From a virus (Duplodnaviria; Heunggongvirae; Uroviricota; Caudoviricetes): 64,000 bases of DNA. Location of the stretch: IMG/VR virus record IMGVR_UViG_3300044796_000656. The stretch is one strand, 5' to 3'. How positions within the stretch are numbered: the first letter of the stretch is position 1; the number at the start of each line of letters is the position of its first letter. Below are positions 7,013 through 63,785 of this stretch, one piece after another. The notes beneath the pieces were generated by a model, which was not told the DNA's origin, did not search any database, and worked only from the letters and a program-made list of their open reading frames with translations. A program made the translations under genes and the position numbers.

Positions 7013-8626
7013 ATGACTTTCTGGAAGCGAATCACGAAGTTTGCCAACTGTCTGGTTGGCACGGCGGCGCTAGTCGCTCGCGACAACTTCGTTGATGTCG
7101 CGATGGCGCTCACTATGCCGCAGGTCAATAACAAGTTGCAGTTGATGTTCCCACCCCGGCCGCAGAGCGCGTTCTTATCACAGCGCCTCGCGGCCCGGAC
7201 GGTGGACGGAGCCGTACTCGAAGGCCAGGAAGGCTGGCAGAAGCTGGCCATCAGGAAGGGCCTGCCTGATTCTAATACAAAGGAGAAGCGCCTTGGGATT
7301 GAAAACGAACCGCACCGAGTCGATGGCTTCTCGGGCAAGATTGAAGAAGGCTACGGCAAGGGCACGAAGCAGTTGCTCACTGATGAAACAGTCGTGGTCA
7401 AGGTCAACGGACAGACACGCTTTGCTCGTCTCAACTACCATCAACACGATGCAGAACGGGCGGGCCTTCATTACGACCTTGTCGTTGAAGGAGTTCGTCC
7501 AGGAACTCCTAAATGGGAACTGCACGTTCCCCGAGGAGATTACAAAGGACGCTACGCATTCATTCAAACTCCCCGAGGCATGCTGATCAACCTCATGCGG
7601 GATCATGGTGAGCAGTTTGCCAAGCCCGCGATGACGTTGAAAGATGAAGCATTCCTGGATTATGTGCAGGCCAATCGAAGCCTGTACGACATCACCGGCA
7701 AAAAAGATGGTGCGTCTGCTTCAGTAACGATCGCTAATTATCGTGCCCACTTCCGTTCCCATCGGGACGGCGGCCAGACTTACTATGACCGGCTGCCTGA
7801 ACTGGAATTCATCAACAATCGAGCGCCGTTCATGCTGTACCGGAAGTTGTTCCCCGGCCCCGGTCAGAATGGCACGAAGTTGGTTGGCGAACTAGTTCAT
7901 CTCGATGGCGCCGCGCGCCAGGGCGGCATTCTGAATTCGTTGCCCGATAAGGCCGTTAAGATCCAGATCGAGCGCGGCCACAGCGAATTCTACGCCTGGG
8001 ACATCGAACGATTCCGAGGGCGCGACCTGTCTCGTATGTCGTTCGCAAAGCGTGAGCGTTACTTGAACGACGCCATTGCTGAGATCGGGCGTTACAACAG
8101 GCACTATCACAGCGTCGAGCATTGCCCGGACAGTATGACTGCCAGGGAGTTCTACGAGTATATCGTTGCCCAGGATCTGCCACACGGTGAGGGCGTGGTC
8201 ATCAAGCCAAAGAACTCGATAGACCGTTCGTGGATCAAGATCAAACGCAGTGACACGATCGATCTGAAAGTCGTCAAGGTCTTGGAAGGCAAGCCTGGAA
8301 CGAAGTACGAAGGTTCTGCCGGTTCTCTGATCGTTGAAGGACCCACGGGCGAACAGGGCAGAGTTGGCAGCTTCCGAGTTGACGACCAGCAGAGGCAGTG
8401 GATCTTCGATAACCAAGATCTCCTGGAAGGTCAGATTGCTGAGATTGAGGCCTTTGAGATGACCGAGCGCGGTGTACCGCGCGCCGGGCGTTTCGTTAGA
8501 TGGCATCCCTCGAAGTCCGAGGGCGCTCTGCTGATGTACGCCGAGACCTTGAGCGGCGGCGAAAGCCGGGAAGCCATGATGAATACTAAGTACGCGCTAA
8601 TTCAAGCAGTTAGGAGAGCCGCGTAA
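7013..8626 (+). CDS. ATP-dependent ligase (nucleotidyltransferase motifs I, IV, V) with an N-terminal domain resembling the LigD 3'-phosphoesterase module
   Basis: Motifs GKKDG (KxDG), EGVVIK and WIKIK. The N-terminal part (LHYDLVVEG...WELHVPRG) resembles the LigD phosphoesterase HYDxRLE / WAVPKGPS motifs. Confidence 0.7.
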   Translation: MTFWKRITKFANCLVGTAALVARDNFVDVAMALTMPQVNNKLQLMFPPRPQSAFLSQRLAARTVDGAVLEGQEGWQKLAIRKGLPDSNTKEKRLGIENEPHRVDGFSGKIEEGYGKGTKQLLTDETVVVKVNGQTRFARLNYHQHDAERAGLHYDLVVEGVRPGTPKWELHVPRGDYKGRYAFIQTPRGMLINLMRDHGEQFAKPAMTLKDEAFLDYVQANRSLYDITGKKDGASASVTIANYRAHFRSHRDGGQTYYDRLPELEFINNRAPFMLYRKLFPGPGQNGTKLVGELVHLDGAARQGGILNSLPDKAVKIQIERGHSEFYAWDIERFRGRDLSRMSFAKRERYLNDAIAEIGRYNRHYHSVEHCPDSMTAREFYEYIVAQDLPHGEGVVIKPKNSIDRSWIKIKRSDTIDLKVVKVLEGKPGTKYEGSAGSLIVEGPTGEQGRVGSFRVDDQQRQWIFDNQDLLEGQIAEIEAFEMTERGVPRAGRFVRWHPSKSEGALLMYAETLSGGESREAMMNTKYALIQAVRRAA

Positions 8627-12925: not shown

Positions 12926-13405
12926 ATGAAACGCTGGATATTGACAGACACGCATTGGAATCATGAAGCGATGATCACGCGTGGCTGGCGGCCAGCAAAT
13001 TATCAAGAGCGAAGCCTGGCGAATATCCGCAGACTGGTAGCACCGGAAGACAAAGTCCTTCACCTTGGAGATGTAATCTTCGCGCGGTCGGCGGAATTGC
13101 AGGCGATTCTTTTGAGCTTGCCAGGGATTTGGGAGCTGGTCAAGGGAAACCACGATCATCGCCGGGATCAATGGTATCGGGACATGGGTTTCGCAGCCGT
13201 TAACGATGCAGCAGTAATCGGTGACGTTTATCTGACGCATGAGCCCGCAGGCTGTTTGCTGCGGGATACCAGGCTCAACGTTCACGGGCATCTGCATGAC
13301 GATCTGCACCGGGTTGAAGAAGGTTATCCCGAACCGTGGCATAGACTACTTGCCTTAGAACTGACCGATTATTGTCCGGTCCTGTTCGACGAATTCACAA
13401 GGTAG
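12926..13405 (+). CDS. calcineurin-like metallophosphoesterase
   Basis: Motifs DTHWNH, GDVIFAR, GNHDH and GHLHDD. Confidence 0.7.
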   Translation: MKRWILTDTHWNHEAMITRGWRPANYQERSLANIRRLVAPEDKVLHLGDVIFARSAELQAILLSLPGIWELVKGNHDHRRDQWYRDMGFAAVNDAAVIGDVYLTHEPAGCLLRDTRLNVHGHLHDDLHRVEEGYPEPWHRLLALELTDYCPVLFDEFTR

Positions 13406-15320: not shown

Positions 15321-16334
15321 ATGAGTTTAGGACCACAAGCAAGCCTACTTGACATGACTCTGAAAGAGCAACACGCCAAGTATCTAGCAGCCGGACTTGT
15401 TTGCGACCTCTGGGATCGTCTGAACTTCCCAAGGGGAACCCAGTTAATCAAGCAAGCTCAAGACCATGGGTTTGATCTTCCCCAGGAAGTCATTCACATC
15501 TTCTGCGGCGGCTCTAACCTCCACGGCGCCAAAGACGATTCAGGGAAAAGCGATCTGGATATCTGCGGGATCTTCGTTGAACCCCCGGAGCTGGCGCTCG
15601 GGATCGACCGCGATGAGCACTTCATCTCGAAGACCGCGGCCGAAGGCGAACGCAATCAGTCCGGCGATAAAGACTTTACCATCTATTCGCTGCGCAAGTG
15701 GGCGGCTATGGCCTGCAATGGCAATCCCAACGCGCCGCTGTTCCTGTTCGCCCCCGTCGATCCCAAAGGCCAAACAACGGTCTGGGATGCCTATATACGT
15801 CCTAGCGCACATCTGTTCCTGGCCAAGACCACCCTGGTAGGGGATTACGCCAAAAGCGGCCTCTTGGGCTTCGCCAAGGGCATCTGGAAGCGCGCGGAGG
15901 CGGCGCTACGAGGCAAGGAATACCACGAAGCCGGAGGCTTCCTTGGATTTGCCCGCAACATGCTTTACAGGATGCAGGGCAAGCGCGGCCGGGGCAAGAA
16001 GGGGCAGCGGCCGGAACTGGAACTGAAGTTCGGCTACGACACCAAGGCGGCGATGCACATGATCCGCGCCATGTTTGAAGCCATTGAACTGGTCGAGACC
16101 GGGAAACTTGCGTTTCCTAATCGTCAGGTCGAAACCCTGAAGGCGATACGGCGCGGCGAGTGGTCAAAGACTGTCGTTGAGCAGTACTTCGAACAACTCG
16201 AAAGCGAACTGAAGAAACTGGTGCGAAAGTCTGACCTGCGCAAGGAAATTGATCGCGCGGCGGTTTCGAAGCTGGTATCTCGGGCGTACCTCGCCCATTG
16301 GAGACAACGTGAATTCTTTAAGCGTTCTCAATAG
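15321..16334 (+). CDS. Pol-beta superfamily nucleotidyltransferase
   Basis: CGGSNLHG-x8-SDLDICGIF matches the h[GS]x...[DE]h[DE]h nucleotidyltransferase signature. C-terminal helical region. Confidence 0.6.
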   Translation: MSLGPQASLLDMTLKEQHAKYLAAGLVCDLWDRLNFPRGTQLIKQAQDHGFDLPQEVIHIFCGGSNLHGAKDDSGKSDLDICGIFVEPPELALGIDRDEHFISKTAAEGERNQSGDKDFTIYSLRKWAAMACNGNPNAPLFLFAPVDPKGQTTVWDAYIRPSAHLFLAKTTLVGDYAKSGLLGFAKGIWKRAEAALRGKEYHEAGGFLGFARNMLYRMQGKRGRGKKGQRPELELKFGYDTKAAMHMIRAMFEAIELVETGKLAFPNRQVETLKAIRRGEWSKTVVEQYFEQLESELKKLVRKSDLRKEIDRAAVSKLVSRAYLAHWRQREFFKRSQ

Positions 16335-17912: not shown

Positions 17913-18776
17913 TTGAGAATGACGAATTATGGTGATCCGGGAACGATAGTTCAGGAAAAGACCAGTAAGACGAAGTTGATCAAGGTCCTGGCCGGCGGAG
18001 TCATCGGAGTAGTGGTATTCTTGACGTCCTTCATGGTCGGTTGCATGTCCATGGTCACGATTCCGGCCGGACACGTAGGCGTGGTCACGAAGTTTGGCCG
18101 CGTTACCGGACAGATGGTTTATGAGGGCATGCATTTCCTGAATCCCGTCGTCGCCGTCGAAAAGATGGACACACGGACGATCGAGCTGAAAGAGAAAGCC
18201 GATGTGCCTTCGGCTGAAGGACTCTTGATCGGCTTGGAAGCCTCGCTTCTTTTCCATCTGGACCCCGCCGCGGCGCCCAAAGTCTACCAGTCGATCGGCG
18301 TGGATTACCGCGCGAAAGTTGTCGAGCCCATATTGAGATCCGCGATGCGTGAGGCTACGGCGTCCCATTCGGCGAACGCGCTTTACTCGAAAGAACGCGA
18401 CCAGGTACAGGCTGAAATCGTGGCCGCGGTTACCAGCCAGCTTGGCGTACGCGGCATCGTTGTTGAACGCATCTTGCTGAGAGACATTGCATTGCCGGCG
18501 GCGCTCAAGTCCTCGATTGAGTCCAAGCAGCAGGCCGAACAGGAATCTTTGGCAATGCAGTTCAGACTCCAGAAGGAAAAGCAGGAGGCTGATCGCAAGC
18601 GAATCGAGGCCCAGGGAATCAAAGATTTCCAGGCAATCGTATCGCAGGGCATCAGCGAACCTCTTCTGCGCTGGAAAGGTATTGAAGCGACCGAGAAGCT
18701 GGCCTACAGCCCGAATTCCAAAATCGTGATCATCGGCAGCGGCAAAGATGGAATGCCGTTGATTCTCGGGCACTAA
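17913..18776 (+). CDS. SPFH/band-7 (prohibitin/HflK-like) membrane protein
   Basis: N-terminal TM helix followed by the characteristic SPFH core (VPAGHVGVVTKFGRV...) and a coiled-coil tail. Confidence 0.7.
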   Translation: MRMTNYGDPGTIVQEKTSKTKLIKVLAGGVIGVVVFLTSFMVGCMSMVTIPAGHVGVVTKFGRVTGQMVYEGMHFLNPVVAVEKMDTRTIELKEKADVPSAEGLLIGLEASLLFHLDPAAAPKVYQSIGVDYRAKVVEPILRSAMREATASHSANALYSKERDQVQAEIVAAVTSQLGVRGIVVERILLRDIALPAALKSSIESKQQAEQESLAMQFRLQKEKQEADRKRIEAQGIKDFQAIVSQGISEPLLRWKGIEATEKLAYSPNSKIVIIGSGKDGMPLILGH

Positions 18777-19313: not shown

Positions 19314-20555
19314 ATGAGCCAATTTGACGTCATCGACGCCGAGGACGGCAAGATCATCAAGATCTGGGCACGCGGCGTCCAGGTCGAAGACAAGGCAATC
19401 GAGCAGCTCAAGAAGACCGCGTCTTTGCCTTTTATCTATCGCTGGGTTGCTGCCATGCCGGATTCTCACTGGGGTATGGGCGCGACCATTGGTTCGGTTG
19501 TCGCAACCAAGGGTGCGATTATCCCCGCAGCAGTCGGCGTGGACATCGGATGTGGCATGATGGCCGTGAAGTTGAATCTGACACTCGGCGACCTGGGGAA
19601 CATCGCTCTTGGTACGTTGAGGGCTGCGATCGAAAAAGCAGTTCCAACCGGCCGGACGAACAATGGCGATCGCAAGTCAGATCGTGGTGGCTGGCAAAAC
19701 GTACCAGATGCTGTGGATCACATTTGGTGCCGAGACTTATCAACAGACTTTGCAGATATCCTCGAAGCGAATCCAGGTGCTAAGCCGATGAACGATGTAA
19801 ATCACCTGGCTACACTGGGAACCGGTAATCATTTCATCGAGTTGGTCTACGATGAAACCGGTCAACTTTGGGTCATGTTGCATTCTGGATCGCGCGGCCC
19901 GGGGAACAAGTTCGGTGTCTACTTTGTGAAGTTGGCGAAGGAGATATGCAAACGCTGGTTCATTCAGCTCCCTGATCCTGATCTTGCGTACATCCCGGAG
20001 GGAACTCCTGAGTACGCCCGCTACATGAAGGCGTTGCACTGGTCGATGAAGTTCGCCTGGCACAATCGGATACTTATGATGGAACGCATCATTGCTGGTC
20101 TTCAGCAGGTGATTCCAAGTCTCGATACCAGGGATGAATCGGTCCACTGCCATCACAACTACGCCGCGATGGAGAAGCATTACGGCCAGGAAGTCATGGT
20201 TACGCGCAAAGGGGCCGTGCGCGCCCAGCGCGACGAGCTGGGGATCATCCCAGGGTCGATGGGTACTCGCAGCTACATCGTGCGCGGGAAGGGCTGCCAG
20301 GACTCATTCCAGTCGTGTTCTCACGGCGCCGGCCGCGCCATGGGGCGCAAGGAAGCCCTGAAGCGGTTTACCCTCGAAGACCATATCAAGGCTACCGAGG
20401 GAATCGAGTGCGCGAAGGACGTTTCCGTTTTGGATGAGACGCCCCTTGCGTATAAAGATATAGACAGCGTGATGGCGGCGCAGACAGACCTCGTCGAGAT
20501 CGTGCATACGTTCAAACAGCTTATCTGCGTCAAAGGCGCAGGGGATGGAGAATAG
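19314..20555 (+). CDS. rtcB: RtcB-family RNA 3'-phosphate/5'-OH ligase
   Basis: Motifs MPDSHWGMG, VGVDIGCGM, GTGNHFIEL, HSGSRGPG and CSHGAGR. Confidence 0.85.
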   Translation: MSQFDVIDAEDGKIIKIWARGVQVEDKAIEQLKKTASLPFIYRWVAAMPDSHWGMGATIGSVVATKGAIIPAAVGVDIGCGMMAVKLNLTLGDLGNIALGTLRAAIEKAVPTGRTNNGDRKSDRGGWQNVPDAVDHIWCRDLSTDFADILEANPGAKPMNDVNHLATLGTGNHFIELVYDETGQLWVMLHSGSRGPGNKFGVYFVKLAKEICKRWFIQLPDPDLAYIPEGTPEYARYMKALHWSMKFAWHNRILMMERIIAGLQQVIPSLDTRDESVHCHHNYAAMEKHYGQEVMVTRKGAVRAQRDELGIIPGSMGTRSYIVRGKGCQDSFQSCSHGAGRAMGRKEALKRFTLEDHIKATEGIECAKDVSVLDETPLAYKDIDSVMAAQTDLVEIVHTFKQLICVKGAGDGE

Positions 20556-21004
20556 TCGGTGCCAATCTACGGCGGTGGCCCGGCGACTTCCTGGACGTGC
20601 AAGCACTGTGCGGGCGTGATGCGTCTCCAATCGGCGACGCCTGTATGTGGAACACATCGGCTTGCCGGGACTGGAAACGATACACGGATAAGGACTTCAA
20701 CGTAGGTCACCTATACTAACCTTAGATGATCTGCAAGTTACATCGACGGCAATCCCCTAACCGGGATGACGGTCCTAGTCAGGGACGCCGTTCTTGAGGT
20801 TCGCGGCTGACTAACGTGGTCAGCGTAGTAGCTGCGGGTACAGGGGAGCCTCAGGGAGGCGTAGAACCCGAGGCCCCAGTGCGAACCAAGAGTTATGCAG
20901 GTGAGCGGTGCAATACCTGTCACGGTGACGTGGCGGGCGGCTTTACCCGGAGGACTCGAACCTGAGTCGGCTGCCGGACCCGACCGCGAATCTGCTCCTG
21001 ATTT

Positions 21005-21076
21005 CATAACGCTCGTGAAAAGACCAGCATTAGTTGGCATTTTCGGACAGGGGTTCGACCCCCCTCATCTCCACCA
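21005..21076 (+). ncRNA. ssrA: tmRNA acceptor piece (T-arm, 3' acceptor strand, discriminator A and CCA) of a circularly permuted ssrA
   Basis: GGAC-AGGGG-TTCGACC-CCCCT-CATCTCC-A-CCA, closely parallel to the E. coli tmRNA 3' end GGACGCGGGUUCAACUCCCGCCAGCUCCACCA. The 5' boundary is uncertain. Confidence 0.55.
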
Positions 21077-21100
21077 TGATTCTCCCGTTGTTCACTATAC

Positions 21101-21385
21101 GGGGATGTCACGGCTTCGACGGAAATGGACAATAGATGTGGACGAGCCGGATGGCGTGGCCACCGTGGCGCAAGCTGACCCCAGTCGGTAACGACGGGGT
21201 ACAACGGACACGCAGACGATCAAGTGCCAAAAACACTGTCGCCGTCAAGGTCAATGTCACGGTTTTCCCGGCTCGCCGGGCGGCCCTGGCAATGGAACTT
21301 GCCGCCTAGTCTTCGGACTAGGAGGGGCTAAGGACTGAAGCCTTTTAATCCAAGGGGGACCGATGGCGGTCCCCCACAGTTCACT
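21101..21385 (+). ncRNA. ssrA: tmRNA coding piece (5' acceptor strand GGGGATG, tag reading frame ending ...ALAMELAA-TAG at 21307..21309, stop codon inside a hairpin)
   Basis: GGGGATG-TCACGG-CTTCGACGG resembles the tmRNA 5' end GGGGCUGAUUCUGGAUUCGACGGG. GGGGATG pairs perfectly with CATCTCC 24 nt upstream and includes a G3-U70 wobble. The tag frame ends LAA. The 3' end is a strong 9-bp hairpin at 21353..21379. Confidence 0.55.
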
Positions 21386-21401
21386 CTGAGGATATGTATC
21401 C

Positions 21402-21971
21402 ATGATCGTTTTCAATTTAATCGGCGGCCCGGGCGCCGGGAAGTCAACCGCCAGTGCGGCCCTCTTCGTTGCCCTCAAGAATAAAGGCGTACGCGCGGAA
21501 CTCGTCGGCGAAGCTGCCCGAGAGGTTATCTACGACGGCCGTACGGCCTTCCTGGGCAACCAGCTCCTGATGCTCGGCATGCAATACGAGCGTGTTCGCC
21601 GGCTGGCGCGGTCTGGCTGCGACGTGGCGATCTGTGATTCACCGCTGATCCAGAACCCGTATTACGGGCGGGATCTTATTTATTACAAAGAACTCCAAGC
21701 GATTGCCGAGATCATCGATCAGGAATTCACGAATTACAATGTCTGGGTGAAGCGTACAACGCCGTTCGATTCTTTCGGCCGGGTTCAAAAGACAATCGAG
21801 GAGGCCGCCGAGTTTGACGAGATGGTCCGCAGTCTCTTCAAGGAAGACATCTGGCTGGATATCACCGGCGACGCCGAAGGCCAGCGGAAGCTCGCGGAAG
21901 CGGCGATTGCCCTGATTGCGCCGAATTACATCTGGGGACTTCCCGAGACTAAACTCCAAGTTGTCATGTAA
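21402..21971 (+). CDS. P-loop kinase (adenylate/polynucleotide-kinase-like)
   Basis: Walker A motif LIGGPGAGKST at the N-terminus. 189 aa. Confidence 0.6.
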   Translation: MIVFNLIGGPGAGKSTASAALFVALKNKGVRAELVGEAAREVIYDGRTAFLGNQLLMLGMQYERVRRLARSGCDVAICDSPLIQNPYYGRDLIYYKELQAIAEIIDQEFTNYNVWVKRTTPFDSFGRVQKTIEEAAEFDEMVRSLFKEDIWLDITGDAEGQRKLAEAAIALIAPNYIWGLPETKLQVVM

Positions 21972-26005: not shown

Positions 26006-26082
26006 TCTATGGCAGGCCAACAGCTTACTTGTACCGTTGGTATCTCGAAGAAGCCGGAGAACTCCGGTACAAAAGGAATGTC

Positions 26083-26637
26083 ATGAATACACCTTCAACT
26101 GCATGGGCACGTAAGTTCTTTGATCTCGCGCAACATATCTCAGGTTGGTCGAAAGACCGGAGCACAAAGGTCGGCGCGGTCATCTTCAATCCCGACACGC
26201 ACGCGATTCTATCGGTCGGTTACAACGGGTTTCCTCGCGGAGTACGAGATGACGCATCAGATGTTACGCCGATCCTAGTACAGCCATCGATGGACACTTG
26301 GAAGGGTATTTTCACAGATCAAGTTGCAATTGATTCCGAGATTGCTCGTATCGGGTCCAGGCACGAACGGCCGCTGAAGTATAAATGGACGGTCCATGCG
26401 GAAGAAAACGCGATCCTTAACTGCGCGCGGCATGGTATCCGTACCGAGGGCATGGCGATCGCCCTTCAGTGGTATCCCTGCATGCATCCCTGTGCTTGTG
26501 CCATTGTTCAGTCTGGCATCGAGACGGTGATCTGCACTAGGCCCGACTTTAACCATCCTCGATTCGGGGAAGAGTTCAAGTTGACCCATGAATTGTTCTC
26601 TGAAGTGAAACTTAACGTCGTCTACCTGGAGACCTAA
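26083..26637 (+). CDS. dCMP (deoxycytidylate) deaminase
   Basis: Zinc-binding motifs HAEENA and PCxxC (YPCMHPCACAI). Confidence 0.8.
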   Translation: MNTPSTAWARKFFDLAQHISGWSKDRSTKVGAVIFNPDTHAILSVGYNGFPRGVRDDASDVTPILVQPSMDTWKGIFTDQVAIDSEIARIGSRHERPLKYKWTVHAEENAILNCARHGIRTEGMAIALQWYPCMHPCACAIVQSGIETVICTRPDFNHPRFGEEFKLTHELFSEVKLNVVYLET

Positions 26638-27329
26638 TGACGATTACCTGCACGGTTCCTCTGCATGCGATTGACGAACGACTTGAACGTGAAGGTATTC
26701 GTCTCCGCCGGGATCGCTTCTTCATCCCGACTATGGCCATGAAAGACATTCTTGGACTGGGGATTGAACCCCGCGAACTGGCCGAAAAGTACATGACGTT
26801 TTATGAGACGATTCCTTTTTATAAGGTCTGCCCTGGGGGCGCCCAACACCATCATTGGTGGATAGGCGGCCTGGAGGATCACGTCAAGGAAATGATCGGC
26901 TGGATGTATGACCAGAAGAGACTCTACAAGAGCGACCTGGCTGGAGTCAGTTCCACGGATATTGTCGCCGCCGCGTTCCTACACGACCTCGACAAGATTT
27001 GGATATACCAGTTGTTAACACCCGAAGAGAAAGAGAAATCCAAGGGCAAGTACCACGAAAAGCAGGAGTTCCGTGGCGTCCAGACAGCCTTCCAGAAGGT
27101 CGATCCCCATTCCAAGATGTTGCTGGAGTTGGCCCGCTTCGGGATCGTCCCCACAGACGATCAATGGTCGGCGATCCTGTTTCACCACGGCGGTTTCTCG
27201 CCGGCGCACTTCCAATTCGGCGGGACCAGTTACACCGGCGAGTTCGTGAACAAGCGCAACCCGCTGGCGTGTCTGTTGTCGATGGCCGACCTGTACAGCT
27301 CGCAAATCCTGGGAAGGAGTCTTTCCTAA
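26637..27329 (+). CDS. HD-domain phosphohydrolase
   Basis: HHHWW...H...FLHDLDK matches the H..HD..D metal-binding pattern. Confidence 0.6.
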   Translation: MTITCTVPLHAIDERLEREGIRLRRDRFFIPTMAMKDILGLGIEPRELAEKYMTFYETIPFYKVCPGGAQHHHWWIGGLEDHVKEMIGWMYDQKRLYKSDLAGVSSTDIVAAAFLHDLDKIWIYQLLTPEEKEKSKGKYHEKQEFRGVQTAFQKVDPHSKMLLELARFGIVPTDDQWSAILFHHGGFSPAHFQFGGTSYTGEFVNKRNPLACLLSMADLYSSQILGRSLS

Positions 27330-27532
27330 TGTGCATGGCTTGCGTTGAAGCGGGAGCCTGGGTCGTTGCGGCTGGTGCCACTGTCTTGCCGTTGGTCATT
27401 CCGGCGATCCGAAAGAAATGCGAGAAGTTCATAAGCTGCGGTGGTGAAGTCAGGTCCAACACTACAGTCTGCAAAACTGTCATCGCGGGTTCAAATCCCG
27501 CCCGCAGCTCCACCGATCCCGCACTCGAATGA
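27329..27532 (+). CDS. small membrane protein
   Basis: One TM helix. 67 aa. Confidence 0.35.
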   Translation: MCMACVEAGAWVVAAGATVLPLVIPAIRKKCEKFISCGGEVRSNTTVCKTVIAGSNPARSSTDPALE

Positions 27533-50027: not shown

Positions 50028-51467
50028 GTGCCCGTGGCCAAGAAAACAGGCGCTCCAAAAGCGCCCAGGATCAAGAAGCCTCGGAAGTCTAAGTCTTATG
50101 CTCCCCGGCGCGCACAGGTCTCCGGGGTTCACAGTGTTGCGATCGAGGAAGAAGTCCCAGTCCCTTATTGGGTTGTGGGAAGTTCCGACTGGATCGACAA
50201 CTGGTTTGATCTCGATGCGCTTCCCGAGGGGAGGGTACTGCGAGTTTCTTCGCCCGGGGATCTTGGCCAGATCAAGGAGGAACTTTCCAAAGAGCCCATA
50301 CATACGCTGGATACCGAAACCGGCCAGGATGTAAACACGCGTGCGGACGCCAGTGAGTTCGACAAGGTATGGGGAATGGAACCCTGGATGCCTACGTCTC
50401 AGGTGCTAATGGCGCAGTATGGCACCGCGCGTCGGCCGCTGATTCTCGAACCCCGGTTACTGGGAGAGTTGCGTTGCTTCCTGGAATCGGACCAGTTCTT
50501 GAAAATCCTTCAAAACTCAGTGTTCGATTTCAAGTTTTTACTGAAAAAGCACGCTGTCCATCTGGTGCGCATTTACGACACCATGCTTGCCGAACAGGTC
50601 TTGACCGCCGGCCGACCGGGTCTGAAGGTCACATTGCTGGATCTGGCAAGACGTTACGCGCCATACCGGATCATCCGAAAGGATGTCCGTGATGAGTTTG
50701 TGACGTTCAAGATCGGTATCCAGAAGTTCTCCAAAGAGATGACTGATTACTCAGGGCGAGACATAGTCTTGCCGCCCGATATTATGGCCGGCCAGGTCCC
50801 TGAGCTTCGCAAATGGAAGTTGGAAGACGTTGCCAAGGCGGAGTTCGAATGTGTCCCCTGCACGGCGGAGATGGAGCTTTTCGGGGTCCACCTGGACGGT
50901 GACATTCTCGAACTGGCGCTTACTGCTTACCGGGAAGATGACATTGAGTTGCGCGAGAAGATCATGGCTGCCGTGGGTTCGTCCTTAGCAGATGCCGGTC
51001 ACTCTATGGGCCTGTTCGGCCAGGAGGGATTCTCGTTCGATCTGAAGTCAATCCCCGAACGCCTGCGGATCTTCCGGGATCTGTTGGGTTTCGACATGGA
51101 AGACGCTACGCGCGAGTCCATGTTGAATATCCCGCACGAAGCCGCCCAGGACATCGCCAAGTGGACAGCAGTAGATAAAGTCCTAACCACGTATGGCGAC
51201 GGTCTGATCAAGAAGATCTCACCGTACGATGGCAGATTCCATCCGAGGTTTAGTCAGCTCGGACTGGGCGACCAGGAAGCCCGGAGCGGTAAGAAGACCA
51301 ACATCGCCACCGGACGTTACTCCTCGAACTTCCAGCAATTACCGAAACCCATCGAACGCTTTGCCAAGGTCGCTGACCTGGGCGAGCAGGGCATGATCAA
51401 TGCCACGTTCGAAGCGCAGATCGCGCAGATACGTCAGCAGAGGGGATTGCTACATGCCGCAGCCTAG
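50028..51467 (+). CDS. DNA polymerase I family, N-terminal fragment (3'-5' exonuclease and thumb), ending just before motif A
   Basis: Exo I LDTETG. TGRYSSNFQQLPKP aligns with the TGRLSS..PNLQNIP element. Ends with a stop codon. Confidence 0.75.
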   Translation: MPVAKKTGAPKAPRIKKPRKSKSYAPRRAQVSGVHSVAIEEEVPVPYWVVGSSDWIDNWFDLDALPEGRVLRVSSPGDLGQIKEELSKEPIHTLDTETGQDVNTRADASEFDKVWGMEPWMPTSQVLMAQYGTARRPLILEPRLLGELRCFLESDQFLKILQNSVFDFKFLLKKHAVHLVRIYDTMLAEQVLTAGRPGLKVTLLDLARRYAPYRIIRKDVRDEFVTFKIGIQKFSKEMTDYSGRDIVLPPDIMAGQVPELRKWKLEDVAKAEFECVPCTAEMELFGVHLDGDILELALTAYREDDIELREKIMAAVGSSLADAGHSMGLFGQEGFSFDLKSIPERLRIFRDLLGFDMEDATRESMLNIPHEAAQDIAKWTAVDKVLTTYGDGLIKKISPYDGRFHPRFSQLGLGDQEARSGKKTNIATGRYSSNFQQLPKPIERFAKVADLGEQGMINATFEAQIAQIRQQRGLLHAAA

Positions 51468-52671: not shown

Positions 52672-53685
52672 ATGGGCACGCAAGCAATGCTGTTCGACTC
52701 TCTGGAGGTGGCGCCGCCGCCGGCTATTGTGACGGCTGGAGCTGGGATCACAGTCAGTACGAAGCCGGTATTCATTGCGACCGTTGATGGCAAATCGTAT
52801 TACCTCGACCTTGATCCCAAGTCCCCGACGTTTAACCAGACGATCTGGAAGGTGCCGGATATCCGTGATGCAGTCACAGCCGAACCCGGCTACCAGATTG
52901 TCGCCAGCGATTATTCGCAGATCGAAATTCGCATCATGGCCTTTCTGTCGAAAGATCCGTGGCTCATTGCCGCGATCAACTCGAAGAAGGACATGCACTG
53001 CTACATGGCAACGGATGTCTTCGGTGAGGAGATGGGCTTCACGTATGAAGACATCGCCGCGGCCACGAAGGGTGAAGATCGAAATTCGCATCCGCGCCAT
53101 AAGGAACTGAACGACGTTCGCAACAATATCAAGCGGACCTCGTTTGGAATCCCCTACGGCGTATCGCCCATTGGACTTTCGTACCTGATCAACAAAGACG
53201 AGAAGTTCGCCGCCATGTTGATGGCCCGCTTCTTTGGGAAAGCCAAAGAGTTAAAGCGTTGGCTTGAAAACCAGGGCGACTTCGCGATCCGGTATGGCTA
53301 CACCTCGACCCTGTTGGGCCGCAAGCGGTTCTATCCAATCCCCTCGCCGGAAGATCCGCGCGCCGAGGAAATGCTTTCTCAGATCCGCCGTTGGAGTGGT
53401 AACCATCCTGTCCAGGGTTCGAACGCCGACATGTTAAAGCTGGCGCTTAACAAGTTGTATCTGGACGTACGTGATGGCGTGTACACCAATCCGGCTAAGT
53501 GGGGAACCCGCCTGTTGTTCGTGGTTCACGATGAAATCGTTGCGACCTGTGAGACCGAACATGCTCCCAAACTGAAAGTAGTTGTGGAGAATGCGATGGA
53601 CTGGGCATACGAACGGCTGATCGGATCGAACAACGTTTATCACAAATCAAAGGCCGTCATCGCCGATGTATGGGCGAAGGCATAA
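52672..53685 (+). CDS. DNA polymerase I family, C-terminal catalytic fragment (motifs A, B, C) with N-terminal QAMLF peptide
   Basis: Motif A DYSQIEIRIMAF. Motif B RNNIKRTSFGIPYG. Motif C VVHDEIV. Has its own ATG and begins MGTQAMLFDSLEVAPPP. Confidence 0.8.
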   Translation: MGTQAMLFDSLEVAPPPAIVTAGAGITVSTKPVFIATVDGKSYYLDLDPKSPTFNQTIWKVPDIRDAVTAEPGYQIVASDYSQIEIRIMAFLSKDPWLIAAINSKKDMHCYMATDVFGEEMGFTYEDIAAATKGEDRNSHPRHKELNDVRNNIKRTSFGIPYGVSPIGLSYLINKDEKFAAMLMARFFGKAKELKRWLENQGDFAIRYGYTSTLLGRKRFYPIPSPEDPRAEEMLSQIRRWSGNHPVQGSNADMLKLALNKLYLDVRDGVYTNPAKWGTRLLFVVHDEIVATCETEHAPKLKVVVENAMDWAYERLIGSNNVYHKSKAVIADVWAKA

Positions 53686-58445: not shown

Positions 58446-58874
58446 ATGAGTAAAGTTCTCGAACAAGAGACCGAGTTTAACGATCTGGAGTGCGTCCGCG
58501 AGTCGATCGCGGAGCACGGTCTGACTCCGGTCTTCAACGAAAACGGAAACCTGGTGACGATGGAGGGCTACGACGAGCAGTTCTTGGCCGACATCGGGAT
58601 CGCCAAAACCAACTTCATGGAAGTCACCAAGCTGCACTCCTACGGTGATCTTGGGTTCAAACAGAACGAAGACGGCAGCGTGAAGTTCATAGGCGATGAC
58701 GCCTTGATGTCGAACAGTCAGTTCGGCGAGTTTTACGACAAGTTCTCCGTCACCTACGCCGAGAAGAAGTACGTGAAAGAGATGTACCAGCAGGGCTTCA
58801 CGCTGGCTTCCAAGGTGCAGACAGTCGGCGGTGGCGTCGATCTTCAGTTCAACGAGGTCGGTCTGGGCTTCTAG
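58446..58874 (+). CDS. hypothetical protein (paralog of 59153..59596)
   Basis: Shares YAEKKYVKEMYQQGF...VDLQF with the downstream paralog. Confidence 0.5.
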   Translation: MSKVLEQETEFNDLECVRESIAEHGLTPVFNENGNLVTMEGYDEQFLADIGIAKTNFMEVTKLHSYGDLGFKQNEDGSVKFIGDDALMSNSQFGEFYDKFSVTYAEKKYVKEMYQQGFTLASKVQTVGGGVDLQFNEVGLGF

Positions 58875-58974
58875 TCAAGTTGGTGCGGAGGGGTCGGTTC
58901 GAGTCCGGCGCCGTCCCCGAAGGGGGCGGCAAGTGATACGGGTGGAACACCGCGCCATTCAATGAGGTAGCAGG

Positions 58975-59169
58975 ATGCACTACGTTTTTGAAAAGGGCCA
59001 GTATCCCAACCATACCGAAGTGGACGCAAAAGAATTCCCATCCGATGCCGAAGCCATAGTCCACGCCGAGGTTGTCGGGGCGGATTACGTGTGGGGTTCC
59101 GATGAGGAGTCGAATCCAACGACTGTGTGGCGGCGAGGCCAGAAGGAGGCACATGTCGAAGTATCTTGA
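58975..59169 (+). CDS. hypothetical protein
   Basis: 64 aa. Confidence 0.35.
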   Translation: MHYVFEKGQYPNHTEVDAKEFPSDAEAIVHAEVVGADYVWGSDEESNPTTVWRRGQKEAHVEVS

Positions 59170-59596
59170 CATCAATGAGTTACAAATGGACGACCAGGAG
59201 ATCCTGGTCGATACTTTGCGCGAGGACATGACGTTCAGTAGTTGCGTTAATGGTCTCACCGTCGAAGTTGAAAGCCATGAAATCGCCGATAGTTTGCTTG
59301 GCTTCCAGGGTGACGTCCGCGCGGAGACGGCCGAGGTAATTATCCGGCGGAAGTTCGTCGGCCCGTCCAGCAACGACATCGGGTTTAAGCGCATGGAGAG
59401 CGGCAATTTCAAGCCGATCATCTCACAATTCGACAGTCACACCTATAACCAAGGGTGGCAGGACACGCTTTCGCAGCGGTACTCGGAACGGAAGTACGCT
59501 AAAGAGATGTACCAGGAAGGGTTCATCCTCCAGAGAAAAACAACTCTGGCGGACGGAACCACGGACATGCAGTTCGTCCAGCAGGGAATCCTCTGA
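59153..59596 (+). CDS. hypothetical protein (paralog of 58446..58874)
   Basis: GAAGGAGG RBS. Contains YSERKYAKEMYQEGF...TDMQF. Confidence 0.5.
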   Translation: MSKYLDINELQMDDQEILVDTLREDMTFSSCVNGLTVEVESHEIADSLLGFQGDVRAETAEVIIRRKFVGPSSNDIGFKRMESGNFKPIISQFDSHTYNQGWQDTLSQRYSERKYAKEMYQEGFILQRKTTLADGTTDMQFVQQGIL

Positions 59597-59754
59597 TGCC
59601 AAAGTTTCTGGTACGCCTGGAAGCGATTTACACGGCGACGATCGAAGCAGAAGATGAAGACGCCGCCATGGAAAAGGCTCCTGATGTTCCTGACATGGGG
59701 GATTGGGAGAAGTGCGACGACGGCATGACAGCCGAAGAACTTGAGGAGGACTGA
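59596..59754 (+). CDS. small acidic protein
   Basis: 52 aa. Paralogous to the next ORF. Confidence 0.35.
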   Translation: MPKFLVRLEAIYTATIEAEDEDAAMEKAPDVPDMGDWEKCDDGMTAEELEED

Positions 59755-59921
59755 TGCCTACGTTCATCATTTACGGAACGATCGAATTGTCTGCCTCGAT
59801 CGATGCCGATACAGAAGCAGAGGCGGTTGCAAAAGCTCCGTCGTACCCGGAGTGTGAAGCGCCGGACTGGGACACGGTTGAGTTCTGCGACTATGAAGTC
59901 GAGAAGCAGGAGGGACAATGA
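59754..59921 (+). CDS. small acidic protein
   Basis: 55 aa. ATGA-coupled. Confidence 0.35.
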   Translation: MPTFIIYGTIELSASIDADTEAEAVAKAPSYPECEAPDWDTVEFCDYEVEKQEGQ

Positions 59922-60109
59922 AGACAGTCAGTATCAAGATCGACAAGAAGGGCAACGCCAAGGTGGATATCGAAGGATTCCACGGGCAGGGTTGTTCCAA
60001 GGTGACGGAGGCTCTGAAGCGCATTGGCAAGAGTTCCGTTGAAACCATTAAACCGGAGTTTTACGAGAACAACTCCAACTCGAACACGGTCGTCAACGGC
60101 GGGTTCTAA
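59918..60109 (+). CDS. small protein of the DUF2997-like type
   Basis: MKTVSIKIDKKGNAKVDIEGFHGQGC matches my recollection of the DUF2997 signature (..I.I.KDG...E.EGF.G..C). This is from memory, not a search. Confidence 0.45.
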   Translation: MKTVSIKIDKKGNAKVDIEGFHGQGCSKVTEALKRIGKSSVETIKPEFYENNSNSNTVVNGGF

Positions 60110-60111
60110 CG

Positions 60112-60594
60112 ATGCGTCAGCAGTACACTGTGTCGTTTGAAACCAACCGCGATGTTCCCTTGTTGATTTTGGGCGGCGGCGCAACAGTTGAAGCCGTCAT
60201 TCAGGATGAACTGGAGAATGTTCTGGGGTGTGCCTGTGGACGTTGTACGAGGAGAGTTTTCATGAGCGATATGCTGGAGCGTGTTATCCCAGCGGAACAG
60301 GTCCCGACGGACCCCATTAGGTGTCCCCGCTGTAATGAGCGGGACATCACCCTGAAGGGGAATGTCACGCGCGCGTTCGAGGAGCGGTTGCAGGACGGTA
60401 ATATCGTCGAACAGAAGTTTGCTGACGAACTCGAACGTGAAACATCTGCGATTGAGTGTCACGACTGCCGTATGCGATTCCTCATCATGACGTCCGAGGA
60501 GTACAAGTTGTCAGTTGCCAACATGCAACTCCACGAGGCGTTGTTGCAGTACTCGCCGAATTACATTCGAGCTGCCAACACGTTGCCCTGCTGA
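60112..60594 (+). CDS. Cys-rich hypothetical protein
   Basis: CACGRC...CPRCNE...CHDC. Confidence 0.5.
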   Translation: MRQQYTVSFETNRDVPLLILGGGATVEAVIQDELENVLGCACGRCTRRVFMSDMLERVIPAEQVPTDPIRCPRCNERDITLKGNVTRAFEERLQDGNIVEQKFADELERETSAIECHDCRMRFLIMTSEEYKLSVANMQLHEALLQYSPNYIRAANTLPC

Positions 60595-60660
60595 ATTGTA
60601 ACCCTATTGGTAGTTCATAGGCTTACCTGTGCCCTTATAGGGACACGAAAGGAGATCCTT

Positions 60661-61308
60661 GTGCTCATTCATAACCGTATGGAAGTAAGTCGTGTCAATG
60701 GTCCTGGTGCCCGCGCAGTTATATGGGTACAGGGATGCCTTCTGGCCTGTAACAACTGCTGGAATCCCGGTACCCATTCGTTTGTTAATGGTCTGGAGAT
60801 GACGGTCGATAACCTGGTGGGCTGGATTCTCGATCTGAATGGCATCGAGGGTGTAACGTTCTCTGGCGGCGAACCGATGCATCAGGTCGTGGAACTGTTT
60901 TGGCTTATGGTGCGAGTAAAAAGGGTGCGTCCTAGTTTGAGTTTCGGAATGTTCACGGGGTACACCGAGGCGGAGTTGGAAGCAGGACGATACAGGTATG
61001 TCTACGCGTCCGGTGGTCCTGGAGGTATGCCTGGAGGTACATGGTCTCATAAGGATCTAGCGTCTTTGGATTCCTACTGGCATTACATAAAGGAACGCCG
61101 ACTCCTCGACTTTGTCGTCGCGGGCCGTTTTGTCGAAGCCATGACGACGACTGCACTCCCGATGGTGTCGTCGGCCAATCAGAAGCTCCTGCTCTTGACC
61201 GACCGCTATCGGGAGTCCGATTTCAAGCAACAAGGTGTCGAGATCAAGATCGCGCCGGGCGGAAAGCGCGCGACTATTACCGGATTCCCTGTGGGGGTGA
61301 ATCTGTGA
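60661..61308 (+). CDS. radical-SAM activating enzyme (NrdG/PflA-like)
   Basis: VNGPGARAVIWVQGCLLACNNCWNP gives the CxxxCxxC motif. GVTFSGGEP. AAAGGAG RBS before the GTG start. Confidence 0.7.
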   Translation: MLIHNRMEVSRVNGPGARAVIWVQGCLLACNNCWNPGTHSFVNGLEMTVDNLVGWILDLNGIEGVTFSGGEPMHQVVELFWLMVRVKRVRPSLSFGMFTGYTEAELEAGRYRYVYASGGPGGMPGGTWSHKDLASLDSYWHYIKERRLLDFVVAGRFVEAMTTTALPMVSSANQKLLLLTDRYRESDFKQQGVEIKIAPGGKRATITGFPVGVNL

Positions 61309-61514
61309 CACCTGAGGAGAAGTTGGAAGCGATTAACGAAGTTCTTCCTGGTTGCCGCGTGATTCATCAGGGTGCTCCGGAGCGCATGTCGTGTTTGGAG
61401 CATCTCGCCTGGATTGACCTGAAGCCTGATATGTGCGGGCCAGATTATCGGGCAAGTTGCGAGGAACACTTGTGCTTGCACTGCAAGATTTTACGGATTC
61501 TGGAGGCTCAATAA
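61305..61514 (+). CDS. Cys-rich small protein
   Basis: 69 aa with four Cys in pairs. Confidence 0.4.
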   Translation: MTPEEKLEAINEVLPGCRVIHQGAPERMSCLEHLAWIDLKPDMCGPDYRASCEEHLCLHCKILRILEAQ

Positions 61515-61516
61515 GA

Positions 61517-61804
61517 ATGCGCTCTTTCGACGACATCAAGATAGTGAACTTTACTGGCACCGGTTCGGTCACGATCGACCTGGAACGTGCGGAAGCAGAC
61601 CCGCAGTATCTCCGCATTTGCGGCCAGCATGACAAGACCGTTCCGGCACAGCGCGATGAGGCGCTAAAGAGGTACGTGGCCTTCTATTTTGGTCGAGAAC
61701 TCATGTTTCAGGAAATGCCATGTACGAATGGTCCCGGGGAGATCTTCCCGGTGACATTGGAGGTAAGGAATGCCCAGTACGGCAGTGACCCCAAAGCAAG
61801 CTAA
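61517..61804 (+). CDS. hypothetical protein
   Basis: 95 aa. Confidence 0.45.
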   Translation: MRSFDDIKIVNFTGTGSVTIDLERAEADPQYLRICGQHDKTVPAQRDEALKRYVAFYFGRELMFQEMPCTNGPGEIFPVTLEVRNAQYGSDPKAS

Positions 61805-63785
61805 CGCAGTTACGTTGGATCTGGTCCCGTTCATGCGGACGGCGAACGAGATTTACAAGCAGGGCAATGCGCACGTATTCACGCTGCACGGCAACACCAA
61901 CGATTACCAGGACAATCACGGCCGGCTGGCCAACCTGCGGCAGTTGATGATGGCCTCCTGCGACGATCATTACACCGCGGAACTCCTGGAGAAGAAGGGG
62001 ATCTCGGTCCAGGCGGCGGATGCTGCACAGCGCGGAACCCATAAAGCCGAGACCAAAGAGAAGCCGAAACGGATCTGCGCGATCTACGTCGCCAACGAAG
62101 GGCTGAAGTTTGACAGCGACAAGAGCCGCGAGTTGTTCATCTCGATCCTCTCCAAGGAGTACGAAAAGGAGATCAAGGCACAGAAAGTCCGGCCGGACTT
62201 CCTGACGCCGTTCAGTTTCGAGGCGGTGCTGTTTACCCTGTCCAAGTGGTTTGAGGCCTCCAAGTCGATCCGGCAGTATAACCGGCAGGCCCTCCGTGGA
62301 GGGACGACGTTAAAACCGGAAGCCATGCTAACCATGATTTTCAGCGACTGCGACGGTTTCTTCCCAGCCGGCGCGATTGCATCGCTCAACAGTGACCGGT
62401 TGCCGATCATCTTCATGCGTAACTGGGCCAAGGATAAAGAGATTGGCAACACGAACCGGATCTTCCTGGTGACGCGCCACCTCTCGGATATCCACGAGTC
62501 GTTGCGCGGGGGCGCCAGTGGTATCTCGGCGATCTTGGTTCCGAAACCGTCCTTCGATGACCGCGAGGAATTCAGTAGGAACTTTTGCGAGAACCTGGCT
62601 AAACGCTGCCATGCCATGAAGTTGGCTGGAGATCCCCTGATCGTTGAAGGCCAGGAAGTAACGGGCGTGCAGTTTGCCGCGGACTTCGATCATCGCGGGG
62701 TTGCTGTCCAGGGAGCTGGTATGAGTCGCGACCAGATCGAGAAGGCGTTCAACGTCGCGATCAGCAAGCGTCTCAAGGTTGACGACCGAATTATCCGGGA
62801 GATCAAGCAGAAGTGTCTGGAGGAAGAGTACGACGGTTTGATCGAGTTCGAGCACCCTGAGTTTGGCTTCGATCGCGTTGGCGGCCTGGAAGAACTGAAG
62901 TTGTATGCCCAGCGCAAGATCATCACACCCTTGAAGGCTGGTGATGCCCGTACCTGCTCGCGCGGGGTTCTGTTGACCGGCCCGGCCGGCACCGGCAAGA
63001 CCTGGTTTGCGCGATCCTTGGCTTACATGGCAGGCGTTAACTTCCTAAAGATCAATCTTTCGAAGTTGATGAACCGCTACGTGGGTGGTACCGAGGAACT
63101 GACCGCGAAGCTGATCGAAGCGATCTGGAATGCGGCGCCTTGTATTCCATTCATCGACGAGATCGATTCTGCATTGGGCGGTGGTCGTGTCACCCAGGGT
63201 GATTCGAACACTGGTGGCCGCGTATTCAGCAGCATGATGACCTTTCTGTCAGACGATAGCCGGGCGGGTAAGATCGTGGTCCTGGCGGCGACTAACCGGC
63301 CTGAAGTTCTGGATGCTGCCTTGATCCGTGATGGGCGCTTCGATGCGCTTCTACCTGTTCTGCCTCCCCCTGAGAGCGGACAGGCAGCGGTAGACGGTCG
63401 CGCCAACATCTTGCAGGCGCTGGTGCGCAAGCACGGTGTCAAGTTTGGGGACGGAGTGAAAGATACGATGAAAGACCCGATGACGGGACTCGGAAAGCTG
63501 TTGCGTGACGAGAACCACATCTGGACTGGAGCCGAGATCGAGTCCCTCCTGAAAGACGCCATCGAGAATGCTCTTTGGGCGAAGAGCAGCACGATCGAGG
63601 TCGATCACTGGAACGAAGCGATGGATAACTTCATTCCTATGACACAGGACGTCGAGAAGATGACGAACTGGGCGCTGTACTACTGCAATAAGTTGTCCTA
63701 TATCCCCGTCGAGTGGCGTGAGAAGGCCCGTGACAAGGCCGCTCTGATGCACGTCATACGGGGTGGTCAGGACTACCGCGCGTAG
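61770..63785 (+). CDS. AAA+ ATPase (classic AAA clade, C-terminal ATPase domain)
   Basis: Walker A GPAGTGKT. Walker B IPFIDEID. SRH region ATNRPEVLDAALIRDGRFD. Long N-terminal non-ATPase region. Confidence 0.8.
   Translation: MPSTAVTPKQANAVTLDLVPFMRTANEIYKQGNAHVFTLHGNTNDYQDNHGRLANLRQLMMASCDDHYTAELLEKKGISVQAADAAQRGTHKAETKEKPKRICAIYVANEGLKFDSDKSRELFISILSKEYEKEIKAQKVRPDFLTPFSFEAVLFTLSKWFEASKSIRQYNRQALRGGTTLKPEAMLTMIFSDCDGFFPAGAIASLNSDRLPIIFMRNWAKDKEIGNTNRIFLVTRHLSDIHESLRGGASGISAILVPKPSFDDREEFSRNFCENLAKRCHAMKLAGDPLIVEGQEVTGVQFAADFDHRGVAVQGAGMSRDQIEKAFNVAISKRLKVDDRIIREIKQKCLEEEYDGLIEFEHPEFGFDRVGGLEELKLYAQRKIITPLKAGDARTCSRGVLLTGPAGTGKTWFARSLAYMAGVNFLKINLSKLMNRYVGGTEELTAKLIEAIWNAAPCIPFIDEIDSALGGGRVTQGDSNTGGRVFSSMMTFLSDDSRAGKIVVLAATNRPEVLDAALIRDGRFDALLPVLPPPESGQAAVDGRANILQALVRKHGVKFGDGVKDTMKDPMTGLGKLLRDENHIWTGAEIESLLKDAIENALWAKSSTIEVDHWNEAMDNFIPMTQDVEKMTNWALYYCNKLSYIPVEWREKARDKAALMHVIRGGQDYRA

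Follow-up and report, generated by a model that had tools for sequence, protein, structure and literature searches.

The Locus

The 64,000-nucleotide stretch of DNA analysed here (the window, from the IMG/VR virus record IMGVR_UViG_3300044796_000656, Caudoviricetes) carries at 20984-21400, on the plus strand, a gene for a two-piece transfer-messenger RNA (tmRNA, encoded by ssrA) whose parts stand in permuted order. An earlier note, made from the letters alone, had read this reversed order as a 3′ tRNA-like module followed by a 24-nt spacer and then by the 5′ end with the tag frame, and the two programs that it had suggested agree with it: ARAGORN places a tmRNA that it flags as permuted (tmRNA*), its tag in frame, at 20984-21400, and the Rfam model RF04321 (tmRNA_permuted), whose gathering score is 47 bits, matches 21011-21309 with 75.6 bits (E = 1.1e-12 in the 64-kb window) over model positions 1-213 in full. 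Since these two independent detectors concur, and covariation in relatives points the same way, the permuted order is genuine.

The gene opens with the acceptor piece, which corresponds to the 3′ portion of an unpermuted tmRNA and here comes first (20984..21076; ARAGORN places its start at 20984 and Rfam at 21011, and the encoded CCA is its end). Within it lie the outer strand of helix 2 (GCUCG, 21011..21015), which in the Rfam alignment pairs with CGAGC at 21143-21147 of the coding piece; the inner strand of helix 2 (CAUUUUCG, 21038..21045), which pairs with CGGAAAUG at 21120-21127 and is backed by covariation; the T-arm, seen in the sequence and in covariation, with AGGGG (21049-21053) and CCCCT (21061-21065) enclosing TTCGACC (21054-21060); and the 3′ strand of the acceptor stem, CATCTCC (21066-21072), followed by the discriminator A73 (21073) and CCA (21074-21076), as indicated by sequence, Rfam alignment and covariation. 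An intervening sequence of 24 nt (21077..21100), read from the sequence and ending in ...AUAC before G1, separates this piece from the coding piece, whose 5′ end (21101..21119; Rfam, covariation) consists of GGGGAUG (21101-21107, with G3 at 21103) and the D-loop analogue UCACGGCUUCGA; GGGGATG here directly precedes TCACGGCTTCGACGG, which fits the general 5′ pattern of tmRNAs. The 3′ strands of helix 2 follow (21120..21147; Rfam, alignment), at 21120-21127 and 21143-21147, flanking the conserved internal-loop motif GUGGA, then a hairpin at the position of pseudoknot 1 (CGGAUGGC-GUG-GCCACCG, 21148..21165; Rfam alignment, with the pairing drawn by eye), and, between the pseudoknot 1 region and the tag, an extra GUAA-loop hairpin (ACCCC-A-GUCG-GUAA-CGAC-GGGGU, 21178..21200) that is not in the relative L058. 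The tag frame called by ARAGORN (21226..21309) runs from the resume codon GCC (21226-21228) through 27 codons to UAG (21307-21309), and the stop codon is held in the helix 5 hairpin CCUAGUC-UUCG-GACUAGG (21305..21322), seen both in the sequence and in relatives; the 3′ domain of the coding piece (21324..21385), read from the sequence, comprises GGGGCU (21324-21329) facing AGCCUU (21339-21344) and a strong hairpin at 21354-21375. Every sequence detail that the earlier note had described, from the T-arm, the acceptor strand and the CCA to the 5′ end, the tag end and the stop hairpin, is present at the positions given, and chance is by far too small to account for the match.

That note had named a conventional 5′ acceptor strand upstream as what would speak against permutation. 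The sole upstream GGGGATG (20541-20547) was rejected as a conventional 5′ end, as it lies within the last codons of rtcB, is not accompanied by the D-loop motif GGNTTCGACG, and is missing from a natural variant of the locus (L007) whose tmRNA gene is whole. A T7-like promoter in the spacer was likewise put down to chance: TCACTATA stands just before G1, but CACTATA has a single occurrence in the 64 kb, and GTTCACT (21090 and 21379) has 9 occurrences against 7.7 expected.

Covariation and the Fold

The two acceptor heptamers form seven perfect pairs, including G3 (21103)·U70 (21070), a wobble that is invariant in nine of nine aligned sequences and that, with A21073 and the encoded CCA at 21074-21076, makes the alanine identity set complete. 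Covariation was counted in an alignment of these nine related tRNA-like domains, over the acceptor stem, the T-arm and the inner helix 2 (20 pairs): standard pairs fill 95% of the cells and half of the pairs (10/20) are altered on both sides, a pairing attained by none of 500 shuffles and by none of the versions in which the partner was slid by 1-3 columns, and the observed covariation score is likewise unreached by either kind of control. Taken by element, the acceptor stem and the T-arm are 100% paired, with compensatory changes in 5 of their 12 pairs (in the T-arm, 4 of 5), and the inner helix 2 has changes on both sides in 5 of its 8 pairs, with 87.5% of the cells paired. The outer helix 2 covaries by eye (GCCCA/UGGGC in L025, GCUCA/UGGGU in L084, GCACG/CGUGC in L060), and the spacer in relatives measures 11-28 nt and is not conserved in sequence, its last base, abutting G1, being C (A in L060 and L064).

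Minimum-free-energy folding, of the precursor as well as of the two pieces, recovers the acceptor stem and the T-arm, the rest of the predicted structures not being trustworthy. Two single-nucleotide polymorphisms (SNPs) among near-identical copies of the locus leave pairs in place as wobbles: 21311 C>T keeps a U·G in helix 5, and 21178 A>G, in copy L133, keeps the closing pair of the extra hairpin as G·U. The covariation, these wobble-keeping SNPs and the synonymous changes in the tag described below indicate together that both the fold and the tag are under selection. A hand-drawn second stem after the tag, a pseudoknot pairing of GGACUG (21332-21337) with CAGUUC (21377-21382), was set aside as unproven, because the change 21337 G>C in one natural copy would break it.

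The Tag

As called by ARAGORN, the encoded tag has 27 residues, AKNTVAVKVNVTVFPARRAALAMELAA, and ends in ...AALAMELAA, LAA being the canonical C-terminal protease signal. A tmRNA tag frame has neither a start codon nor a Shine-Dalgarno sequence; the one here would resume at an alanine codon, has a hydrophobic ...AA tail, and its stop lies within the hairpin 21305-21322, the stop codon of the relatives also being in or beside a hairpin. An A-rich stretch precedes GCC 21226, likewise in relatives, and this common context favours the resume codon chosen by ARAGORN. The only SNP that touches the tag among the near-identical copies, 21285 C>T, is synonymous (GCC to GCT), and between the relatives L060 and L064, which differ at five tag positions, four of the differences are silent and the fifth replaces Met by Leu.

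Among the matches listed, most viral permuted tmRNAs have short tags of the type ANDxxxALAA, whereas a small viral clade (L058, L131, L137, L025, L084, L060, L064) has long basic tags, of 22-33 residues. Four tags of this clade have in common UU(U/C)CCGGC(U/A), which reads FPA or IPA and could reflect conservation of either the peptide or the RNA. An ATG-started open reading frame (ORF) of 57 codons (21136-21309) lies in the frame of the window tag and crosses helix 2 and the pseudoknot 1 region, with no evident ribosome-binding site; it is probably incidental.

Relatives and Class

Relatives were sought by a pattern scan of IMG/VR and of the JGI metagenomes, followed by nhmmer ranking, and at least 120 IMG/VR viral stretches bear the signature of a permuted tmRNA. 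The earlier note had held that a permuted tmRNA in a phage would be noteworthy, an expectation that does not survive either this count or the published survey of Buchholz et al. (2022), who report tmRNAs from 402 (2.3%) of the 18,146 phage genomes surveyed, with 53 of 133 unique phage tmRNAs called two-piece by ARAGORN, mostly from marine and aquatic phages; the cultured phages with permuted genes in their Table S1 are Caulobacter CcrSC and CcrBL9, Mesorhizobium Cp1R7A-A1, Phaeobacter MD18 and Synechococcus S-CBWM1 (PMC9004378). Knowledge of phage tmRNAs as such goes back to the mycobacteriophages of the Bxz1 type (PMC4131195). The window gene is thus a divergent new example of a type documented in many phages, and not the first.

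The closest relative among the matches listed is L058/L132; the CAUCUCC acceptor strand is common to L131/L134/L136 and L137, and L025/L084 and L060/L064 are more distant. These related genes sit on IMG/VR viral contigs. Among the Rfam models of permuted tmRNAs, the window gene passes only the general one. In a permissive scan, beta_tmRNA (RF01850, gathering score 84 bits) gave 46.8 bits in a partial match to model positions 68-175, which covers the tRNA-like domain only, and the thresholds of alpha_tmRNA (RF01849, 50 bits) and cyano_tmRNA (RF01851) were not reached, the cyano match being filtered as a weaker clan hit; as beta_tmRNA was the best member of the clan, the alpha and cyano scores lie below 46.8 bits. 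Nevertheless, the post-tag motif CCUAGCAACAGAA is kept in L131, L137, L060, L064 and L025, and Mesorhizobium phage Cp1R7A-A1, whose gene is clearly of the alpha type, has it there as well; L064 itself passes alpha_tmRNA with 63.5 bits. The relatives thus point to an alpha-type ancestry.

A 41-base pattern of the tRNA-like domain with the CATCTCC acceptor strand has no match in 185,579 species-representative genomes of bacteria and archaea, and a bacterial origin was rejected on this absence. In GenBank phages the only detectable nucleotide similarity covers about 40 nt in the region of the T-arm and acceptor. Positions 21050-21076, 27 bases that run from the T-stem through the CCA, recur without a mismatch as the 3′ ends of tRNA-Ala genes in unrelated viral contigs (L001 9116-9142, L002 264-290, L003 1070-1096), and an exact search of IMG/VR with this 27-mer, T-arm plus acceptor, returned tRNA-Ala genes only and no tmRNA.

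Neighbouring Genes and Natural Variants

Immediately upstream of the tmRNA gene and its leading spacer lies rtcB (19314..20555, plus strand; Pfam RtcB 400.7 bits, PHROG 1075), for a 3′-phosphate/5′-OH RNA ligase. The ORF-poor spacer between the two (20556..20983, plus strand, about 430 nt) was scanned for ORFs, Rfam families, promoters and folding: it holds no ORF longer than 49 aa wholly inside it, matches no Rfam family even with E-values of up to 10, shows no sigma-70-like site and has homologues only in near-identical copies, and its folding z-score is -2.2 on both strands, modestly better than that of shuffles. It is possibly a promoter or leader, and from 20645 onward it is retained in the variant that is without rtcB. 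On the other side, 2 nt past the gene end given by ARAGORN, begins a gene for a P-loop (AAA_28) protein of 189 aa (21402..21971, plus strand; Pfam AAA_28 42.3 bits), which has weak similarity to adenylyl-sulfate kinases and may be co-transcribed with the tmRNA gene. A search of IMG/VR with this protein gave no relatives. On one other viral contig (L019, 271-602 and 1447-1908), a permuted tmRNA is followed, about 850 nt farther downstream, by a homologue of the AAA_28 protein with 33% identity.

The exact AAA_28 protein is found on 19 metagenome contigs, and the five retrieved copies that span the whole tmRNA gene are more than 99% identical to it. In the variant L007 (1-1125, against the window before 20645) rtcB is swapped for three small genes, one with a DPBB_1 domain, and in L005 (555-692, against the window at about 20575-20580) an insertion of about 137 nt stands right after rtcB; neither variant has any change in the tmRNA gene. 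The gene is therefore maintained, even where the upstream gene is replaced.

Farther upstream the surroundings have the character of an RNA-repair cluster. RlaP, an RNA-ligase-associated nucleotidyltransferase of the Pol-beta type (15321..16334, plus strand; Pfam PF10127 61.3 bits, PHROG 388), lies 4.6 kb from the tmRNA gene, and the same neighbourhood includes a calcineurin-like metallophosphoesterase (12926-13405), a ligase with an RNA_ligase domain (7013-8626) and a band-7/SPFH protein (17913-18776), the order band-7, small ORF, rtcB being found also in Caulobacter phage phiCbK (L138).

It might be supposed that RtcB seals the two pieces of the tmRNA into one RNA. RNase P leaves 5′-phosphate and 3′-OH ends, which RtcB does not join, and this was ruled out on end chemistry. 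In E. coli, ssrA is the target of RtcB ligation identified most often (PMC9650030), and phage RNA-repair sets have been interpreted as counter-measures against host attack on translation (PMC7824862); the adjacency of rtcB to the window tmRNA is in this respect suggestive, the link being a weak one.

The Element

Two contigs from different samples, of 96,308 bp (Ga0480581_000271) and 96,306 bp (Ga0480571_000206), include the window sequence letter for letter, the element thus assembling to nearly equal size twice (L139, L142). About 82 kb of the 96.3 kb were read, that is, the window and about 18 kb of flanks. The gene set includes a class II ribonucleotide reductase, a split family-A polymerase, a sliding clamp, RecD2, an SNF2 helicase, two ligases, a thymidylate kinase, a C5 methyltransferase and many small ORFs on one strand, and no housekeeping genes were seen in the window; no GenBank phage has replication proteins more than about 31% identical to those encoded here. 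PHROG scans covering every window ORF of at least 280 aa, together with the flanks, recognised no terminase, portal, capsid or tail gene in the 82 kb. Thus, from the claim that the tmRNA is phage-encoded, what stands is a setting of large-phage-type replication, nucleotide-metabolism and RNA-repair genes, and what is missing is a recognisable virion gene in the window and its flanks. The element is likeliest a phage, although, with no virion genes in some 82 kb and with relatives that carry an integrase, the label is unproven.

Some further features of the element may be recorded. Its one tRNA gene in the 82 kb is a tRNA-Cys (GCA anticodon, 27435-27512), which comes after a cytidine/dCMP-type deaminase (26029-26637) and an HD-domain protein (26637-27329). 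The family-A DNA polymerase has its 3′-5′ exonuclease part and its polymerase part in separate ORFs (50028-51467 and 52672-53685), with small ORFs between them, and the SNF2 helicase is followed by a gene cluster for two proteins of DUF1257, one of DUF2997, one that resembles radical-SAM proteins and an AAA ATPase of 671 aa (58446-63785; L139 6677-12016). Relatives of the right-hand end continue into RuvC, HNH and tyrosine integrase genes at the contig end (L146 10012-10821), and in another relative (L149) the same gene block stands beside a Mu-type transposase domain.

Discussion

The best-studied form that the window gene resembles is the ssrA of Caulobacter crescentus (alpha_tmRNA, RF01849), with which it has in common the succession of acceptor piece, short spacer and coding piece, the tRNA-like domain, a helix 2 split across two RNAs and a tag end in LAA. 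It differs from the alpha type in that it falls below the alpha threshold and its post-tag motif is degenerate, in the extra GNRA hairpin before the tag, in a tag of 27 residues that is basic and not of the ANDN type, and in an acceptor stem with A5-U68 and the 3′ strand CAUCUCC. With the two-piece tmRNAs of phages (OM43 phage Melnitz, pelagiphages, CcrSC/CcrBL9, Cp1R7A-A1, MD18) it shares a place on a large genome, in its own case probably viral, and no smpB seen nearby, although it has no attached glutamine riboswitch or other Rfam element. Cp1R7A-A1 has its permuted tmRNA gene, with 112 bits on alpha_tmRNA, at a distance of 1.3 kb from rtcB; the gene occupies the gap between coding sequences 136 and 137 on the minus strand (L010 2278-2687; MT188704.1, about 58703-59112), where it is unannotated in GenBank.

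Two other systems are comparable in their setting. The one-piece tmRNAs of the Bxz1-group mycobacteriophages and of Bacillus phage G (PMC4131195) also belong to large phages with tRNA and RNA-repair genes, RtcB homologues being present in many mycobacteriophages, but these tmRNA genes are unpermuted and keep the standard order. In the bacterial PrfH-RtcB2 'rescue and repair' module (PMC9304027) a ribosome-rescue factor likewise stands beside an RtcB RNA ligase; there, however, rescue is the work of a protein homologous to release factors, the operon is proven and the substrate is colicin-damaged 16S rRNA, whereas here there is adjacency only.

The reading that we prefer, with a probability of roughly 0.8, is that of a working two-piece tmRNA (ssrA) gene on a large phage-like element. 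The gene, its fold and its conservation are shown by the analysis, while processing, charging, tagging and the biological role are inferred, the maturation by analogy with the two-piece tmRNA of Caulobacter and the action from what is established about trans-translation. One precursor would be transcribed across 20984-21385; RNase P would cleave it 5′ of G21101, and the 24-nt spacer would be trimmed to the encoded CCA at 21076, leaving an acceptor piece and a coding piece that would be held together by the acceptor stem of 7 bp and by both segments of helix 2. The alanyl-tRNA synthetase (AlaRS) of the host would charge the molecule by way of G3·U70 and A73, and host SmpB and EF-Tu would bring it to ribosomes stalled on broken mRNAs, where the nascent chain would be transferred to the alanine and translation would restart at GCC 21226, adding the 27-residue tag that ends in LAA and so directing the product to the proteases of the host. 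The element would probably use the gene, which is set among RNA-repair genes (RlaP, RtcB), to keep ribosomes available during infection, when stalls arise from mRNA decay and from RNase-based defences of the host.

Several points weigh against this reading, or against parts of it. At the tmRNA gene neither a promoter-like nor a terminator-like site was found, nor a T-run after the 3′ domain; in that domain the alpha-type motif CCUAGCAACAGAA is degenerate, and the hairpin 21148-21165 has no supported partner for pseudoknot 1, close relatives being few. An in-frame GCU at 21271 could serve instead as the resume codon, giving a 12-residue tag, ARRAALAMELAA. The tag is itself unusual, with 27 residues and a net basic charge, and since the most common length in the tmRNA database is 10 aa (PMC11915505), its part in degradation is an assumption. 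A tblastn search of the 82 kb with the SmpB sequence of E. coli as query detected no SmpB, so the function of the tmRNA would depend on compatibility with the host. As regards the neighbouring ligase, among about 125 retrieved viral or metagenomic loci with permuted tmRNAs, rtcB lies within the flank only in the present type and in Mesorhizobium phage Cp1R7A-A1, so that a general rtcB-tmRNA linkage is not supported, and one natural variant of the present locus is without rtcB.

The peculiar tag admits another explanation, which we consider unlikely, in which the RNA competes with the tmRNA of the host, either because the adaptors and proteases of the host handle a long basic tag poorly or because SmpB is titrated, trans-translation being shifted in favour of the element. 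A tag of 27 residues, against the modal 10, that does not resemble the ANDxxxALAA of most viral permuted tmRNAs would agree with this, and there are precedents in phages: the tmRNA-like RNA of DS6A is little beyond a tRNA-like domain, and such a molecule strongly inhibits tmRNA, perhaps through titration of SmpB (PMC4131195), and the authors of the phage Lacusarx study proposed that host tagging is counteracted (PMC5648845). Yet the tag still ends in the LAA protease signal, and its changes are synonymous or conservative, a constraint that a pure SmpB decoy would not need. It is a good deal less probable that the window comes from a non-phage mobile element or an undescribed bacterium, the gene being the ssrA proper to that replicon. 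Plasmid tmRNA genes are known (PMC4131195), relatives of the right-hand end have an integrase, and no virion gene was recognisable in 82 kb of the 96.3-kb contig; but the gene content is that of a large phage, with dozens of small ORFs on one strand and no housekeeping genes, the band-7, small ORF, rtcB order recurs in phiCbK, the related tmRNA genes are on viral contigs, and the CATCTCC-type pattern went unmatched among the species-representative genomes.

Finally, one might think of a gene in decay and no longer functional, which was picked up from a host chromosome or stayed behind after integration into a host ssrA, since elements often integrate in tmRNA genes and carry fragments of them (PMC9004378, PMC4131195), and the failure of the alpha, beta and cyano models as well as the degenerate 3′ domain could be taken for signs of decay. 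This we find barely credible in view of the two pieces and the tag, which are complete, the identity elements, which are all intact, the SNPs, which are synonymous or preserve wobbles, and the compensatory changes across the clade; nor does any integrase adjoin the gene within the window.

Beyond the working tmRNA gene, a wider proposal may be put forward as a tentative one, doubtful in our own estimation: that there exists a virus-borne clade of alpha-derived two-piece tmRNAs outside the bacterial sequence space, and that the window gene forms, with RtcB and RlaP, a 'rescue and repair' island whose tag has a divergent fate. What suggests such a clade is the CAUCUCC pattern without a bacterial match, the failure of three lineage models and the long basic tags of 22-33 residues. 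If this were true, the tmRNA would free ribosomes jammed by RNase defences of the host, RtcB and RlaP would mend cut tRNAs and the tmRNA, and the long tag would send its products to a fate unlike that of host-tagged proteins.

In summary, the window tmRNA gene does not overturn the current understanding; it is a well-supported divergent addition to the virus-borne two-piece tmRNAs, from metagenomes that do not look marine, and its distinctive points are the misfit to the three lineage models, the long basic tag and the placement in an RNA-repair cluster. This placement, with RlaP and RtcB, fits the idea that large phages are equipped with kits to sustain translation under attack by the host, and provides a concrete locus for asking whether RtcB services a phage tmRNA, while the long basic tags of the clade raise a question that can be put to the test, namely, what purpose the tags of phages serve.

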